From positions 12,045 through 76,044 of IMG/VR virus record IMGVR_UViG_3300045125_000119: DNA of 64,000 bases. The stretch is one strand, 5' to 3'. Position numbers and translations under genes: made by a program. Origin of the DNA: a virus. The notes under the pieces are model-generated. The model was not told where the DNA came from and made no database searches. It saw only the letters and a program-made list of their open reading frames with translations. Below, in pieces: positions 38,167 through 61,185 of this stretch (the stretch's first letter is position 1; the number at the start of each line of letters is the position of its first letter).

Positions 38167-39531
38167 TTAACATCTGGGAACAATATTGAAAAATAATCCA
38201 ACAAAGAGTCGAAGATTTTGCAGAGTATCGTACATTAGCGTTTTGCAGTTCTCGATCCATTTGTCACAAAACGTGTGCCAAAAGAAATTGGTAAGATACT
38301 GAAAAGCTAACGGCCAATCTGTAGTCATGTTCTAGATACGTCTGCATCCTCCCAAACACAGCGGCGGCTTCCCAATAAAGTTCTTCGCTTATTCCGCCTG
38401 ATTTGCCATTAAGGAACCGACCGGCATTTTTGATCTTGTTCAAAAAGACGCTTGCCTTTTTCCATCATGGCTTCATCACACCGGGTATCAGTCCCGACCT
38501 GATTCAAAGCGGCCCAATACCGAACACCGGCCATCCCGTACTTTTCGATGTAAGTATCGGGGTGAACAAAGTTTCCGGCACTTTTGCTGATCTTCCGGCC
38601 GTGACGGTCGAGGGCGTGGCCGCTAATGATGATTCGGTTCCACGGAATCTGGTTGTTGTGGTAAATGCTCTTGACGATGGTGAAAAAGGCCCACGTCCGA
38701 ATGATGTCGTCAGCGCCTGAAACCGTGCGTCAAAAATCGGACACTTCAGGCTCGGTTCGCCGGTGTGCGACATCCAAGCTAGTTGCGGACTCAAACTGCT
38801 GGTGAACCAAGTATCGAACACTTGGTCGTCGGCTTCGCCCGGAATGTGGATTCCGAACTTTCGCTCACGAGAAATACTCAATCGTATTTCAGATCATCGA
38901 GCCACCGGTGCAATCGTTCACGAAAGTGATCCGGGTGCCATTGAATGCTGTCAATGGCTTCACGCAGCCGTGGCAGGTGATCCATAATGTTGATGAACCA
39001 GCCCTCACCGGTGCGCAATTCGACTTTCGCACCGCTGCGTTCGCTAGCAGCCGTTCTCGTCAATCTCGGATTGGCTCACGGACTCTTTTGTGATCGGGCA
39101 CCAATAGTAGTCACGGACGGCTTTGTAGGCCAACCCTTTCGACTTCAGGTCGTCAAAAGAGATGGCACTGAGAGTAATCGCCTTGCCTTGAAAGGTGTGG
39201 TATTGGTGCTTACTCCATCCCATCCCAATTTTTGCAAACAAGTCAGAGTACATTTCCGACTTGTTCTCGGCGAACTTGATGATTTCCGACTGGTCGAAAA
39301 TGTGTTCTTTGTTAGCCAGTTTCTTTGTTGGCAGACCGTTGCAGTCAAAACAGAACGGATACAACAAGATGTCCTCTTTGGACGGCTTGTGTCGGCCCGT
39401 TTCTTCATCCCACTCGGCCGCATCGTAAAACGGCGTGTACGAGCGATGAAATCCATGTGGCAGTACGAAAAAACGTGCCCCATGTGAAGTTGACCGGAAA
39501 TTGTGGGCGGCGGAACGTCAATAAGATACAT
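38167..39531 (-). CDS. valS: minimal valyl-tRNA synthetase (archaeal-type), ~450 aa, no CP1 editing domain, frameshifted
   Basis: [82 protein letters not shown]. Confidence 0.9.
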
Positions 39532-39546
39532 GATTGCTCCAAAAAA

Positions 39547-39572
39547 GAAACCGGGGTAGAAACCCCGGTTTC
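39547..39572 (-). terminator. intrinsic terminator
   Basis: GAAACCGGGG-loop-CCCCGGTTTC followed by a T-run on the minus strand. Confidence 0.75.
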
Positions 39573-39598
39573 GAGAAGACTCAAAGTTCTATGGACCG

Positions 39599-39841
39599 TC
39601 ACCGGGGCCGCTTGGGTCCAGAGTACGGTACGACTACGGTAGCATAGAACTTGTTCATGAAAGTATAATACCACGCCCAAGCCAATTTGTCAATCTTTTT
39701 GTGAGAACAAGTGAAGTCCACCTTGTTCTTGCCGTCTTCGTACTTGACCAGACAGTTGTAGTCACAGGTCAGTTCGACTTCGATATCTTCCGCCGCCAGA
39801 TCGTAGTCAGTGAAAGTTTTCTTGTCCTCAGATTCGTACAC
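39599..39841 (-). CDS. hypothetical protein
   Basis: 80-aa ORF; start may lie further upstream. Confidence 0.4.
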   Translation of the reverse strand: MYESEDKKTFTDYDLAAEDIEVELTCDYNCLVKYEDGKNKVDFTCSHKKIDKLAWAWYYTFMNKFYATVVVPYSGPKRPR

Positions 39842-39895
39842 CCGAAAAAAGTGTTTCTCGGTGTACGGATTGTGAGAAGAAACCCACGGACGCCC

Positions 39896-40306
39896 TTAGC
39901 CAGTTTTACTTCTTTTTTCATTTTTAGACTTACGTTTGAGTGGCTCGATAAGATTGGGATATTTGTCCGAGGTCAAGTCCAACGCCGAAACGTACCAATG
40001 GCCCGCACGCATGTTGCCGACATCACGTTTTTGCTCAAACAGCTTCACGGAACAGTAATCTTTGCTGCGGTATTCGACGTAATAGGCGTCGGGGTGTTTG
40101 TGACGCAACCGCCCGGTTTCGGTCAGAGTAACGTTCTCGAAAAGAATCTGGTCGGGTACGAACTCGACCATCGGCCCTTTGCTGGTCATGAGTACCTGTT
40201 TGTAGCCGCAGGCAACGGGCAGGCCGTTCGGCGTTGCGAATTTAATCTCTTCTTCGGATCGTGCCGGGATTTTCAACCGCTCGACGTATGTGTTTGGCAT
40301 GGTCAA
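39896..40306 (-). CDS. hypothetical protein
   Basis: 136-aa ORF with GGAG RBS. Confidence 0.6.
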   Translation of the reverse strand: MTMPNTYVERLKIPARSEEEIKFATPNGLPVACGYKQVLMTSKGPMVEFVPDQILFENVTLTETGRLRHKHPDAYYVEYRSKDYCSVKLFEQKRDVGNMRAGHWYVSALDLTSDKYPNLIEPLKRKSKNEKRSKTG

Positions 40307-40354
40307 TCTCCTAATCGGATTGACCTATAATTTAACATCATCTACGCCAATGTC

Positions 40355-58719: not shown

Positions 58720-58806
58720 TTGCGGCAACAGGAGTCGAACCTGATGCTTCCATCGTATCGGAGGGATGGCTGGCTGCCGTTACCGGGCACAACCCCTCGC
58801 CCCGCA
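58720..58806 (-). ncRNA. tRNA-like element with non-canonical core
   Basis: TGCGG../..CCGCA-A acceptor and CAGG-TTCGACT-CCTG T-arm, but the interior does not fold as D and anticodon arms. Confidence 0.5.
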
Positions 58807-58860
58807 GAACTCGGATGGCCGGTGGCCTGCGTAAACGATTCGGTGATTTCACTACCGCAG

Positions 58861-58950
58861 TGACTCCGACTGGACTCGAACCAGCAGTATCCCCGTCTAG
58901 GGGAGACAACAGCTTCTCAAGCTGTCCGCTATCTCATTGTGCCGCGAGTC
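58861..58950 (-). tRNA. divergent tRNA with GAG (Leu) anticodon
   Basis: ACAGC-TTGAGAA-GCTGT, 23-nt variable arm, GCTGG-TTCGAGT-CCAGT, A73; bulged acceptor; D-loop lacks GG. Confidence 0.6.
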
Positions 58951-59804
58951 ATTCAATCTTAGTTCTCGACGCCCAATCGCCAATAACCACGACAATCACT
59001 TTCGTGTCTTCTTCTAGATATTGTATAACACCGGTTTCGTTGTGGATTATGTTGTAATATTTACCCGGCGTTCTCTGGCTCTGCACCGGCTCTTGTTTCA
59101 ACCAAACACTGTACTTACCTTCTGGATTGGGGAACCAGCCTTCGGGCGGCGAAGGCATAATGAAGGCTTCCCGACATTCAACTCTGATAGCGGTTTGGTA
59201 ATCATGGTTTCTCCGGGTCGGGCAGCACGGTCGCTTGCGTTTTCGCCGCCTTGAAGGATGTATCCGAGCATGTTCCCGACGGCCCGAAGCTAGCGTTGCG
59301 CTTCGTGTGTTGCCGCCCCGCTCGTAAATCGCACCCACCCGAACATGATCTTCGCACAACTGCGACAACTGGTTTCGCAGTGCGACGGTTTCTTCGTTCA
59401 AAACCCGCAAACTGGAATAAAGGTCAGACACCATCTTGAACAGCTCAGTGTTCCCGTTCGGTCATTTCATCGACACGACACGGAAGCTGCTGGTTCGCTT
59501 CGAGCGAATCTTTTGCACACTCAAGTGCCGCTTCTAGCTTGGTCACAGTTGACTTCGTAATGAGGATCGGGTTGATCGGCCGTAGTCGTCATTAAGACGT
59601 TTTTGGCTTCCTTTGCCACTTTGCTGTCGAGAAGGCACATCAAACCGTAACCGGCCACAAGCAAACGAATTTTCTCCCTGCGTTCTTCGGGCAAGGCGTA
59701 AATCCGCACGTTTTGATGATTTCGTCAATCTGTTTCTCAAGCATGGCAAACCCTTATGAAATCTCCGGCTGGCGAGATTCTACCCCGCCAGCCGGAGTTG
59801 TATA

Positions 59805-60988
59805 TCACTCGGCGAGAACTTCAGTCACCTTGCCGGAACCAATGGTCTTGCCGCCTTCTCCGGGCTGGCGAACTTGATTCCGTTGTCGAGGGCAATTGGC
59901 TTGTCCAGCGACACCATGACTGCCACGTTTTCGCCCGGCATAACCATTTCGATCCCGTCTTGCAACTGGATCGTGCCGGTCACGTCGGTCGTTCGGAAGT
60001 AGAATTGCGGCTTGTACCCGTTCATCACGGGAGTGTGCCGCCCGCCCTCGTCCTTGCTCAAGACGTAAGCTTGAGCCTTGAACTCGGTCCGGGTTTCAAC
60101 TTGCCGTGGGGCAGAAATAACTTGCCCACGCCGAATCTGATCGGCTTTGATGCCACGAAGAAGAACGCCCACGTTCTCGCCCGCTTCCGCCACAGACATC
60201 GGGTTGTTGAACTGTTCGACGCTGGTGACGACACTTTCCAGCGTCCCCGTCAGGCCGAGAATTTCAACCTTGTCACCGGCCCGAACGTGTCCCTGTTCGA
60301 TTTTGCCGGTTGCAACCGTCCCGCGCCCTTCGATCTGGTGAACGCCCTCAATTGCCATCAGGAACGGCCGGTCGAAAGCACGAACCGGATCGGGGATGTC
60401 GCTTGTCGAGCGCATCGAGCAGTTCTTCGATGCACTTAATCTTTTCGGCGTCTTTGGGATTATCCAAAGCGGGCTTCTGCAGCACACGAACTACGGTCCT
60501 GGACTCGCCGTTGAACCCGTACTTGGTCAACAGGTCACGGACTTCCATCTCGACCAAATCGGTCAGTTCCGGGTCGGCGATGTCGCACTTGTTGATGAAC
60601 ACAACGATGTTCGGAACGCCGACCTGACGAGCCAACAGAATGTGTTCACGGGTCTGAGGCATAGGGCCGTCGGTGGCCGACAGCAATAGAATGGCCCCAT
60701 CCATTTGGGCCGCACCCGTAATCATGTTCTTGACGTAGTCGGCGTGACCGGGGCAGTCGATGTGGGCGTAGTGACGGGAAACCGTCTCGTACTCCACATG
60801 CGACGTGATGATCGTGACGGTCTTGGTTTCGTCACGCTCCGTGCCGCCCTTAGCGATGTCCCTTGTAGCCCTTGGGCTTTGCCAGCCCTTCTGCGCTGAA
60901 CCGCCAACAACGCAGCGGTCAGGGTCGTCTTGCCGTGGTCGATGTGACCGATGGTTCCGACATTAACGTGAATCTTCTTAGCTTCCAA
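59805..60988 (-). CDS. tuf: elongation factor Tu, planctomycete-type (frameshifted, probable TTG start)
   Basis: [90 protein letters not shown]. Confidence 0.97.
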
Positions 60989-61102
60989 CTTACACTTCCT
61001 TATAGGCTTCAACGAGCCATAAGTGACAACCAACTCTTATCCCCACCTTGCGGTGTTTTTACTCACAACGAGTAAGAGCCAGGGCAATCGGAGTTGAATG
61101 AG

Positions 61103-61185
61103 TGCCGATAGCAGGACTTGAACCTGCACGCCCTTACGGGCACCGGCTTCTAAGACCGGCGTGTCTGCCATTCCACCATATCGGC
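61103..61185 (-). tRNA. tRNA-Leu(TAG)
   Basis: GCCGATA/TATCGGC, CCGGT-CTTAGAA-GCCGG, variable arm GCCC-GTAA-GGGC, GCAGG-TTCAAGT-CCTGC. Confidence 0.96.

Follow-up and report, generated by a model that had tools for sequence, protein, structure and literature searches.

The stretch of DNA analysed here (the window) comprises 64 kb of the 146-kb IMG/VR phage record IMGVR_UViG_3300045125_000119. It carries a class Ia synthetase resembling ValRS, a compact CysRS, an EF-Tu, tRNA-Leu genes and two structured RNAs, together with PurN and other non-translation genes (Table 1).

Table 1. Features of the window with position, strand and basis of assignment
Feature	Position	Strand	Basis and remarks
Class Ia ValRS-like gene	~38154..39531	-	PF00133 pieces in three frames; ~460 aa read across breaks
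Miniature RNase P RNA	43248..43491	-	RF00010 62.5 bits, E 4.6e-17, under gathering score 100
PurN (glycinamide ribonucleotide formyltransferase)	~45981..46600	-	PF00551 E 4.7e-26; one in-frame TGA
Gsp-synthetase-like ATP-grasp ligase + DUF350 gene	46600..48400	-	PF03738 E 1.4e-38; upstream of purN; not translation genes
tRNA-Leu(CAA)	51267..51340	-	ARAGORN; Rfam tRNA 67.8 bits; 74 nt, short variable loop (class I shape)
Compact CysRS	~51602..52803	-	PF01406 pieces in several frames; ~400 aa
tRNA-Leu(UAA), long variable arm	52847..52927	-	ARAGORN only
23S rRNA GTPase-associated-centre mimic (H43/H44, L11-binding domain)	53814..54016	-	RF02541 positions 1076-1161, E 1.3e-5 and 2e-5
tRNA-Leu(GAG), long variable arm	54102..54186	-	ARAGORN + Rfam
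Short tRNA-Leu(UAA)	~57904..57979	-	Clean copy L012 6602-6677, 76 nt
EF-Tu, IEGVH paralogue clade	~59805..60988	-	PF00009 in two frames; intact copy 393 aa
tRNA-Leu(UAG), long variable arm	61102..61185	-	ARAGORN + Rfam; identical in L012 4435-4518
ClpS-like gene	62766..63140	-	Upstream of EF-Tu; placed by tblastn; syntenic in relatives

None of the four protein genes (ValRS-like, CysRS, EF-Tu, PurN) is open in the window and every conserved gene is spread over several frames, with at least seven frame changes in the ValRS-like gene, at least three to four each in CysRS and PurN, and 8 indel bases at 7 sites in EF-Tu. Illumina contigs of a strain about 98% identical served as error reference; three of the source studies dealt with biofilters and one with wastewater. 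Compared with this strain, the window contains a 1-base indel every ~116 nt. Contigs from the four studies cover 38.2-58.1 kb and show about 126 indels per 20 kb, and alignment to the 10.5-kb contig L012 led to 77 indel events and 143 substitutions across 8962 aligned bases, the indels running in both directions and lying outside homopolymers in about half of the cases. As the Illumina contigs lack the breaks and L012 is itself densely coding, the frame breaks are assembly errors, not biology, and the dense indels explain both the splitting of the conserved genes and the damage to one tRNA. Decaying pseudogenes, or a chimeric or host contig, with genuine frame breaks would also account for a window in which all conserved genes are broken, but this is highly improbable: the indels affect genes and tRNAs equally and in both directions, and between breaks the proteins are 98-100% identical in amino acids to intact versions encoded on Illumina contigs of independent studies. 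Moreover, the contig is listed as a virus, carries fibre genes and has the gene order of other huge phages, as expected for a phage rather than for a host chromosome or a chimera.

The ValRS-like protein had been called a minimal, non-editing ValRS in a preliminary description of this DNA, and this holds, with the CP1 editing domain and the C-terminal coiled coil absent and the end of the protein ~35 aa past FCDKWIE. The window copy is colinear with residues 7-485 of an intact 492-aa relative (P0123), and the intact members of this family, which is found in metagenomes only and measures 420-500 aa, share the short architecture. Its HIGH and KMSKS motifs read HMGH and KISKS, and identity to any full-length ValRS is at most 43%. 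The best NCBIfam model is valS (PRK13208, 343.6 bits, cut-off 738; ileS 149), and the protein scores under every valS cut-off. Aligned to Thermus thermophilus ValRS (1GAX), it has no counterpart of chain residues 193-345, which correspond to CP1, and the alignment extends only to residue 654 of 862. Twelve family members sharing 30-52% identity show no variation in the HIGH motif, in the KMSKS-type loop or at the positions that align with P41, P42, W456, I491 and W495 of 1GAX. A confident AlphaFold model (pLDDT 85, pTM 0.85) is MetRS-sized with a five-helix C-terminal bundle; its query-normalised TM-score is 0.82 against 1GAX and 0.76 against the LeuRS of Mycoplasma mobile, which likewise has no CP1. 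We infer that the enzymes of the island are active and that the ValRS-like protein charges tRNA-Val. The absence of editing extends to a complete 533-kb relative with the same island, which encodes several further synthetases, among them a monomeric PheRS of the mitochondrial type and a ThrRS that lacks the TGS/N2 editing part.

The window copy of CysRS is colinear with the 402-aa protein P0394, and its HIGH and KMSKS motifs read HLGH and KMGKS. The zinc-ligand motifs of E. coli CysRS are present, as is the C-terminal CysRS-type motif. Six relatives of 380-402 aa form a clade with it (E 1e-77 to 1e-125), set apart from cellular CysRS, which follow at E 1e-42 with 30-33% identity. The earlier designation as compact was apt. 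In comparison with bacterial CysRS (TIGR00435) the phage enzyme retains the catalytic core, KMSKS and the C-terminal motif, but it is ~60 aa shorter and, at 326-336 bits, narrowly misses the cut-off of cysS (340); for MshC it scores far lower (211 bits, cut-off 485).

The EF-Tu passes the TIGR00485 cut-off and shows IEGVH instead of IEDVF in the aminoacyl pocket. This change, already noticed before, is real, as it is also seen in the intact, Illumina-derived copy P0274 (98% identical to the window copy). The phage copies form one clade (100/100 support) inside a group of EG(V/I)H paralogues, which are also encoded on Gemmataceae chromosomes beside canonical tuf; the pocket therefore marks a paralogue and is not a phage invention. 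With the second EF-Tu of Gemmataceae, e.g. of Fimbriiglobus ruber, the phage copies share the IEGVH pocket, TGKIEQG, VE(Q/A)FN and the length, but they form a clade of their own, and over domains II-III their identity to the cellular proteins is 67-72%. The switch I motif KTVTI is common even to the canonical Fimbriiglobus EF-Tu. A literature search found no paper on the Gemmataceae EG(V/I)H paralogue. The neighbouring ClpS-like gene has PF02617 matches in relatives (L012 2528-2857; L013 6428-6769).

The formyltransferase, which the preliminary description had placed in the translation set, is present as a PF00551 gene; however, every named homologue is PurN, and P0004, a relative, scores above the TIGR00639 cut-off but reaches just 49.5 for fmt (cut-off 201.5), so that an assignment as Fmt was rejected and the gene belongs to a purine/Gsp-like context. 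In the window it is broken by compensating indels with a frame switch near NIHPS/LLPQYGG, and the adjacent DUF350 and GSP_synth genes are syntenic in L011, L016 and L023. The miniature RNase P RNA retains the catalytic domain, with the specificity domain cut to ~50 nt, and syntenic copies lie at L011 13704-13943 and G002 464339-464576. Directly 3' of tRNA-Leu(GAG), the mimic of the GTPase-associated centre is split by a 125-nt insert; it is syntenic in G002 (38.8 bits, E 3e-8) and can be aligned in L013, where a helix carries a compensatory change. Support for the two RNAs thus consists of Rfam matches, synteny in two relatives and this one compensatory change; no report of either RNA in phages was found in a literature search.

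Five conventional tRNAs for Leu and Ser had been noted earlier. Five tRNAs are indeed present, but all are tRNA-Leu, one is damaged in the T arm, and neither ARAGORN nor Rfam detected a tRNA-Ser in the interval 38167-61185. The damaged one, short tRNA-Leu(UAA), is identical to L012 over its first 62 nt but lacks CCC (3 nt) of the T arm at 57917, and was missed by ARAGORN for this reason. The tRNA-Leu(UAA) with a long variable arm is absent from the Rfam matches, even with E values up to 1 admitted, and is probably also damaged by assembly errors. Two "aberrant tRNA-like elements" described earlier could not be identified as such; these two Leu(UAA) genes are candidates for them. The cloverleaf of tRNA-Leu(CAA) shows compensatory changes in the alignment with relatives, and short tRNA-Leu without the long variable arm occur in all three related phages, the long and short sets being duplicates. 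No report of short tRNA-Leu in phages was found in a literature search. Genes for tRNA-Phe, tRNA-Tyr and further tRNA-Leu lie just outside the window, and of the 56 tRNAs in the complete relative, four are tRNA-Val. The suggested mismatch between Leu/Ser tRNAs and Val/Cys synthetases consequently does not stand, and arose because only 34% of the genome is in view. The phage loci have a G+C content of 52-57% compared to 61-66% for Fimbriiglobus loci, and CUA, UCA, UCU, UAU and UGU are commoner in the phage; as the anticodons GAG, CAG and GAA read codons already preferred by the host, codon compensation can account for only part of the tRNA set.

The gene order is kept in three related huge phages. 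In this lineage the editing-less valS and the variant tuf occur together, whereas none of nine other IMG/VR records with the ValRS-like gene, two of them complete, carries this EF-Tu or CysRS. None of the three proteins is near-identical to host copies (at most 43% for the ValRS-like protein, with CysRS and EF-Tu at the values given above). From sequence comparison, the host is probably a member of the Gemmataceae (Planctomycetota), and the genome probably measures 430-530 kb.

Genes, architectures, conservation, synteny and phage-specific clades are observed directly, and the purpose of the island may be inferred: we regard a translation island that makes a huge phage self-sufficient in translation as the best explanation (probability roughly 0.6). 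The editing-less ValRS-like protein and the compact CysRS, complemented in the complete relative by the editing-less ThrRS and the monomeric PheRS, would charge tRNAs, the EF-Tu paralogue with its remodelled aminoacyl pocket would deliver them, the phage tRNAs (Leu in the window, Phe, Tyr and more Leu next to it, 56 in the complete relative) would decode, and the miniature RNase P RNA would mature tRNA 5' ends. Phage mRNAs, ~10 points below the host lineage in G+C, could thus stay translated when the host provides too little of these components or none. As catalysis would be needed for one infection cycle only, proofreading domains may have been lost and the synthetases become small. Self-sufficiency leaves the duplication of short and long tRNA-Leu and the remodelling of the EF-Tu pocket unexplained.

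The preliminary description had favoured replacements by which divergent ValRS, CysRS, EF-Tu and tRNAs escape abortive-infection toxins that cut or modify the host versions. Such toxins against tRNA and translation exist, e.g. the toxSAS FaRel2, which acts on the 3' ends of tRNAs (PMC11245113), the proteins are divergent phage-specific clades found together in three phages, the GTPase-centre mimic could serve as a decoy, and one carrier has an anti-Pycsar gene near the ValRS-like gene. We nevertheless consider this rather unlikely: no defence system against ValRS, CysRS or this EF-Tu was identified here, the complete relative has a nearly full tRNA set and not a few selected targets, and other phages carry the ValRS-like gene without EF-Tu or CysRS. 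In addition, the pocket and switch I variants also occur on host-lineage chromosomes, so the phage did not introduce them in order to escape.

Also unlikely, and slightly more so, is that the ValRS-like protein is a synthetase paralogue that transfers the amino acid it activates (valine or a small one resembling it) to an acceptor other than tRNA-Val. This acceptor could be a different tRNA, e.g. the tRNA-Leu of class I shape, or a molecule other than tRNA. Truncated synthetase paralogues with other acceptors are known from MshC and YadB/GluQRS. A non-canonical acceptor may be considered due to the loss of the tRNA-binding domains (anticodon-stem-binding and coiled-coil, besides CP1), the low valS score and tRNA-free phage contexts, such as a 38.7-kb contig with the gene beside an ERF recombinase and a DNA methylase. 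The two to four different mini class Ia paralogues in several huge phages and the short tRNA-Leu in three of three related phages point in the same direction. However, a predicted helical bundle of MetRS size is retained, the positions aligned to the ValRS pocket do not vary, the complete relative has four ordinary tRNA-Val genes, and distant ValRS-like genes are not flanked by short tRNA-Leu genes.

Compared with known systems, the ValRS-like protein shares with T. thermophilus ValRS and NCBIfam valS the best-matching sequence family, the signature motifs, the aligned valine-pocket residues and the fold, but it has at most 492 aa instead of 862, without CP1 (~150 aa), some of the later insertions, and the anticodon-stem-binding domain and coiled coil that full-length ValRS uses on tRNA-Val. 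Loss of the proofreading domain in a class Ia enzyme is shared with M. mobile LeuRS (PDB 3ZIU), and editing-free organellar synthetases resemble the PheRS of the complete relative, which passes the pheS_mito model, and its ThrRS; the amino acid differs, though, the carrier is a phage and not a reduced cell, and the C-terminal tRNA-binding modules are missing too. In huge phages, tRNA genes, EF-Tu and as many as 15 synthetases are known (Al-Shayeb et al. 2020, PMC7162821), and the present phage agrees with such phages in its size of several hundred kb, dozens of tRNAs, several synthetases and an EF-Tu, akin to host copies yet distinct from them, as well as in the role proposed there, keeping or redirecting translation. 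A CP1-less ValRS, a compact CysRS and the EF-Tu pocket variant are not described in the parts of that paper considered here, and distinguish this island from the repertoires reported in them.

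Pfam matches to EF-Tu, a class Ia synthetase, CysRS and a formyltransferase were all found in the window, each spread over several frames, and ORFs were short across its whole length. An alternative genetic code was considered, but recoding of TGA, TAG or TAA left the genes broken, with their pieces in different frames. Logan contigs (Illumina; three biofilter studies and one wastewater study) span 38.2-58.1 kb at ~98% identity and show ~126 indel differences from the window per 20 kb, with substitutions among which transitions predominate, the pattern expected of a related strain. 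One Illumina contig of this strain (L012, 10,470 bp) has a high coding density and an intact EF-Tu of 393 aa. Comparison with the window over 8962 bases gave 143 substitutions, 39 window insertions and 38 window deletions, the indels being mostly single-base, with an identical neighbouring base in only about half. The EF-Tu gene of the window contains 8 indel bases at 7 sites, and its segments between the breaks match the intact protein at 98-100% identity. Because L012 codes densely with an intact EF-Tu, indels occur throughout and the segments keep this identity, the frame breaks are assembly errors of the unpolished long-read type, not pseudogenes or recoding. The source record (146,164 bp, of which the window covers 12045-76044; CheckV completeness 34%) is an error-ridden assembly, and 'aberrant' features read from it require comparison with clean relatives. 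The long ORFs at 28.7-38.1 kb that look intact belong to Ser/Gly-repeat fibre genes; these very long, Ser/Gly-rich pentapeptide-repeat ORFs end in Cys/Arg-rich tails resembling frameshifted repeat sequence, and the ORFs as listed probably fall short of the full fibre gene or genes. Two stretches of the window are missing or replaced in the Illumina strain, one holding spore-photoproduct-lyase-like (PF20903) fragments, the other without a family match. A fibre ORF and a ValRS fragment, used as queries for related loci among viral contigs, gave no match, and blastn against GenBank phages led for EF-Tu to nothing but generic tuf matches and for the ValRS region to no match. As for expression, no RNA dataset was listed as containing the record, and the wastewater runs labelled 'RNA-Seq' are probably DNA.

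In the window, the catalytic motifs of the ValRS-like enzyme read HMGH (HIGH) and KISKS (KMSKS). Alignment of 12 family members (pairwise identity 30-52%) revealed the glycine and histidines of the HIGH motif and the first and last lysines of the KMSKS-type loop as invariant. The intact 492-aa member P0123, from a related 122.5-kb phage contig, aligned with T. thermophilus ValRS (1GAX) at residues 4-174 to 33-192, 178-245 to 346-414 and 250-454 to 451-654. Because this alignment jumps from 192 to 346, CP1 is reduced to ~3 residues (P0123 residues 174-178 standing for 1GAX residues 193-345), and it is absent from all 12 members. Beyond 1GAX residue 654 of 862 there are ~38 residues instead, every one of the 12 members stopping 30-40 residues past FCDKWIE. 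The AlphaFold model of P0123 (pLDDT 85.3, pTM 0.85) consists of a Rossmann core and a C-terminal five-helix bundle, the latter being what is left where the full anticodon-binding region and the C-terminal coiled coil are missing; it can be superposed on enzymes of MetRS size, on 1GAX (TM-score 0.82, query-normalised) and on the CP1-less LeuRS of Mycoplasma mobile. From both alignments and the model, the preliminary description of a minimal, non-editing ValRS was right as regards architecture. Specificity for valine and tRNA-Val is what we infer. P0123 positions P12, P13, W255, I289 and W293, invariant across the 12 members and present in the window copy, align to 1GAX P41, P42, W456, I491 and W495, which we take to be valine-pocket residues of ValRS. 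The best NCBIfam family of P0123 was, by a wide margin, valS (PRK13208, 343.6 bits; ileS, 149), far under the valS cut-off of 738 because half of the protein is missing. A whole-library HMMER search set apart full-length proteins of 422-494 aa as a group of their own (172-512 bits), the weaker of which were outscored by the best full-length ValRSs (~250-264 bits); every member of this compact family is metagenomic. In the literature that could be searched, there was nothing relevant on CP1-less phage ValRS. Some phages (the L022 locus, G004 and G006) have several distinct mini class Ia paralogues (two to four, in frames of 420-500 aa), in one case in tandem, which hints that compact enzymes have radiated into differing specificities.

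The CysRS belongs to a compact clade as well, with relatives of 380-402 aa (E-values 1e-77 to 1e-125), beyond which there is a sharp fall to cellular CysRS (464-485 aa, E ~1e-42, identity 30-33%). YACG, GWHLECS and HHENE, all present in the window fragments, are presumably the zinc-ligand motifs of E. coli CysRS. Scoring of intact relatives in place of the broken window copy gave 325.8 and 336.3 bits with TIGR00435 cysS (cut-off 340) and 209-211 bits with the MshC model (cut-off 485). The formyltransferase, previously counted as part of the translation set, is PurN and not Fmt according to homologues, model scores and length: all named homologues are phosphoribosylglycinamide formyltransferases, the intact relative scored 153.2 bits for PurN (cut-off 150.1) and 49.5 bits for fmt (cut-off 201.5), and ~205-213 aa leave no room for the C-terminal tRNA-binding domain of Fmt. 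The near-identical PurN of the Illumina strain was not among the PurN homologues returned. In the window purN comes after a gene pair for DUF350 and a Gsp-synthetase-like protein, and a glutamine amidotransferase is encoded elsewhere in the window; purN is no member of a translation set.

The intact EF-Tu passes the TIGR00485 equivalog model (577.4 bits, cut-off 522.4) and its three-domain architecture is complete (PF00009, PF03144, PF03143). Compared with Salmonella EF-Tu it reads IEGVH for IEDVF, TGKIEQG for TGRVERG, VEQFN for VEMFR and, in switch I, KTVTI for RGITI; the first of these means that the canonical aminoacyl pocket (E. coli E215-D216-V-F218) is not kept. The changes lie at pocket positions that are mutated in engineering work to admit unusual amino acids. 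In Fimbriiglobus ruber, the canonical tuf (69% identical to Salmonella) already has KTVTI with the pocket still VEDVF, and a second, stand-alone EF-Tu gene (57% identical to Salmonella) has EGVH. Neighbours of this paralogue are a ParE toxin gene and genes for sugar dehydrogenases, which is not the str/tufB operon context. Among the 120 proteins closest to the phage EF-Tu, 116 have EG(V/I)H, and in a maximum-likelihood tree a fully supported branch splits the paralogue group from canonical EF-Tu sequences, with the phage copies as one clade (100/100 support) within the paralogue group. On account of the Fimbriiglobus copies, the nearest proteins and the tree, none of the four sequence changes is a phage invention. 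The pocket change noted in the preliminary description is thus real, being present in the intact copy, but it marks a paralogue common to Gemmataceae and their phages. EF-Tu switch I is linked to Lit-like protease; KTVTI as an escape from such a protease was rejected, since the canonical EF-Tu of Fimbriiglobus reads KTVTI too. The literature that could be searched gave nothing relevant on a Gemmata EF-Tu paralogue.

ARAGORN predicted four tRNA-Leu genes in the interval, three of them confirmed by Rfam, and a fifth, tRNA-Leu(UAA) of 76 nt, is intact in L012 and lacks three T-arm bases in the window copy. No tRNA-Ser was found in the interval, so that the reported 'Leu/Ser' set consists of five tRNA-Leu; further Phe, Tyr and Leu tRNAs lie in the record just beyond the window. 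Each of the three related phages has Leu anticodons on both a long form (80-87 nt) and a short one (74-77 nt, 4-5-nt variable loop), the short form folding as a cloverleaf with compensatory changes at 15 of 20 pairs. Short tRNAs with the Leu anticodons GAG, CAA, UAA and CAG have no long variable arm and carry discriminator A73, and they stand alongside normal long-arm tRNA-Leu within the same phages. Suppressor-like tRNAs occur in the complete relative (anticodon CUA in three, UCA in one), and odd long-arm tRNAs with irregular anticodon loops were noted too. A class II synthetase-like core of ~290 aa (LRPETT, LKEFYQLEFQ, AIGTDRCVF), without an anticodon-binding domain, adjoins the tRNA array. 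Searches of the 146-kb record for other synthetases (PF00152, PF00579, PF00749) gave no match and the relative's PheRS and ThrRS had no tblastn match there, both of which may only reflect the 34% completeness. Of tRNA-dependent transferases that might draw on Leu, Phe or Tyr tRNAs, Leu/Phe-transferase (PF03588) and cyclodipeptide synthase (PF16715) were absent from the record.

Two structured RNAs were obtained with Rfam at relaxed threshold. The RNase P RNA match of 244 nt covers the whole RF00010 model with a specificity domain cut down to ~50 nt, retains CR-I and CR-V and is syntenic in three phages; nothing relevant on phage RNase P RNA was found in the literature that could be searched. 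Directly downstream of tRNA-Leu(GAG), a second RNA matches 23S rRNA positions 1076-1161 (H43/H44, L11-binding), divided by a variable insert, of 125 nt in the window; it is alignable in the related contig (L013), with one compensatory change in the closing helix. Both RNAs occupy syntenic sites in the complete relative. A sarcin-ricin-loop-like stretch was seen by eye within the insert of the window copy.

Features of the translation island and related loci, in window numbering unless prefixed (L012, Illumina strain contig; L011 and L013, related 122.5-kb contig; G002, complete relative, with loci L016 and L023; G000 C1, full 146-kb record; L015, Fimbriiglobus ruber locus; L022, phage locus with mini class Ia synthetases)
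Feature	Position	Strand	Basis
Ser/Gly-repeat fibre ORFs	28674-38115	minus	
ValRS-like gene	38154-39531	minus	across breaks, colinear with P0123 residues 7-485
Mini RNase P RNA	43248-43491; L011 13704-13943; G002 464339-464576 (-)	minus in window	RF00010
PurN formyltransferase	about 45981-46600	minus	homologues and PurN model
Stretch with PF20903 fragments	50043-51267		missing or replaced in Illumina strain
Compact CysRS	about 51602-52803	minus	HLGH, KMGKS, YACG, GWHLECS, HHENE and C-terminal CysRS-type motif in window fragments
23S GTPase-associated-centre RNA	53814-54016; G002 484001-484119 (-); L013 16752-17068	minus in window	Rfam, relaxed threshold
Stretch without family match	58563-59601		missing or replaced in Illumina strain
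EF-Tu	about 59805-60988	minus	intact copy of 393 aa (L012)
Short tRNA-Leu	51267-51340; L012 6602-6677; L013 7919-7995, 12598-12674, 18180-18255; L016 239-315, 3853-3929; G000 C1 78381-78913		no long variable arm
Suppressor-like or odd tRNAs	G002 121393-121540, 491736-491826, 80837-80930; L013 3766-3855; G000 C1 80576-80666		
Class II synthetase-like core	G000 C1 about 80750-81650 (~68.7-69.6 kb in window numbering, beyond window)	minus	PF00587 weak, 24.5 bits
ThrRS, 408 aa	L023 17681-18904		profile positions 171-549 only; no TGS or N2 editing domains
PheRS, 355 aa, monomeric	L016 8773-9837		passes mitochondrial pheS_mito model
Mini class Ia paralogues	L022 10001-11341, 11719-12981		420-500-aa frames
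EGVH EF-Tu paralogue	L015 6001-7176		

The order ClpS, EF-Tu, tRNAs, (CysRS), DUF350, Gsp-like ligase, PurN, helicase and ValRS-like gene is conserved in the 122.5-kb contig and in a 673-kb contig, which corresponds to a complete virus of 532,729 bp in IMG/VR. This complete relative has EF-Tu (81% identical to the clean copy of the window strain), compact CysRS and the ValRS-like gene within ~33 kb, and contains additional class I and class II synthetase genes. Since it encodes 56 tRNAs for most amino acids, four of them tRNA-Val, the mismatch formerly seen between Val/Cys synthetases and Leu/Ser tRNAs is an effect of viewing one genome end. The ValRS-like family is broader than the lineage of the window, with 10 IMG/VR loci, of which four lie on contigs of 343-533 kb, and smaller, AT-rich contigs with no tRNAs close by have the gene too. 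As to co-occurrence of an editing-less ValRS with the variant EF-Tu, the order is kept in related phages, and EF-Tu and CysRS of the window type are missing from nine of the 10 IMG/VR records with the ValRS-like gene, two of the nine being complete. The closest cellular EF-Tu and PurN proteins come from Planctomycetota, chiefly Gemmataceae. G+C is 52-57% in the phage loci versus 61-66% in Fimbriiglobus loci, and CUA, UCA, UCU, UAU and UGU were commoner in the phage, a comparison with a small host sample and a phage ORF set that may contain spurious frames.

The translation components are real and form a conserved island. Anti-defence and relaxed fidelity can be put forward as hypothetical purposes. 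A more specific proposal is that translation in this lineage has a branch deliberately left without proofreading, in which editing-less ValRS, ThrRS and PheRS would feed an EF-Tu paralogue whose altered aminoacyl pocket takes misacylated or unusual aminoacyl-tRNAs, with class-I-shaped tRNA-Leu as dedicated substrates and controlled mistranslation or recoding in the infected cell as the outcome beyond extra capacity; we regard this as a long shot. The form of the genes is what stands out. In this lineage a half-size, editing-free ValRS-like family known from metagenomes only accompanies a compact CysRS, and the complete relative has in addition a ThrRS without editing and a monomeric PheRS, together a natural minimal-synthetase set. 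If active, these enzymes would reveal the minimum of a class I or class II synthetase that suffices in vivo, and would offer small, ready-to-use components for cell-free or orthogonal translation. The EF-Tu paralogue of Gemmataceae and their phages is directly testable. With tRNAs, synthetases and an elongation factor in a genome of more than 200 kb, the complete relative has the translation repertoire of huge phages, and PMC7162821 already records translation genes in such phages; the new element here is that the synthetases are consistently miniaturised and lack proofreading, in combination with the EF-Tu paralogue.
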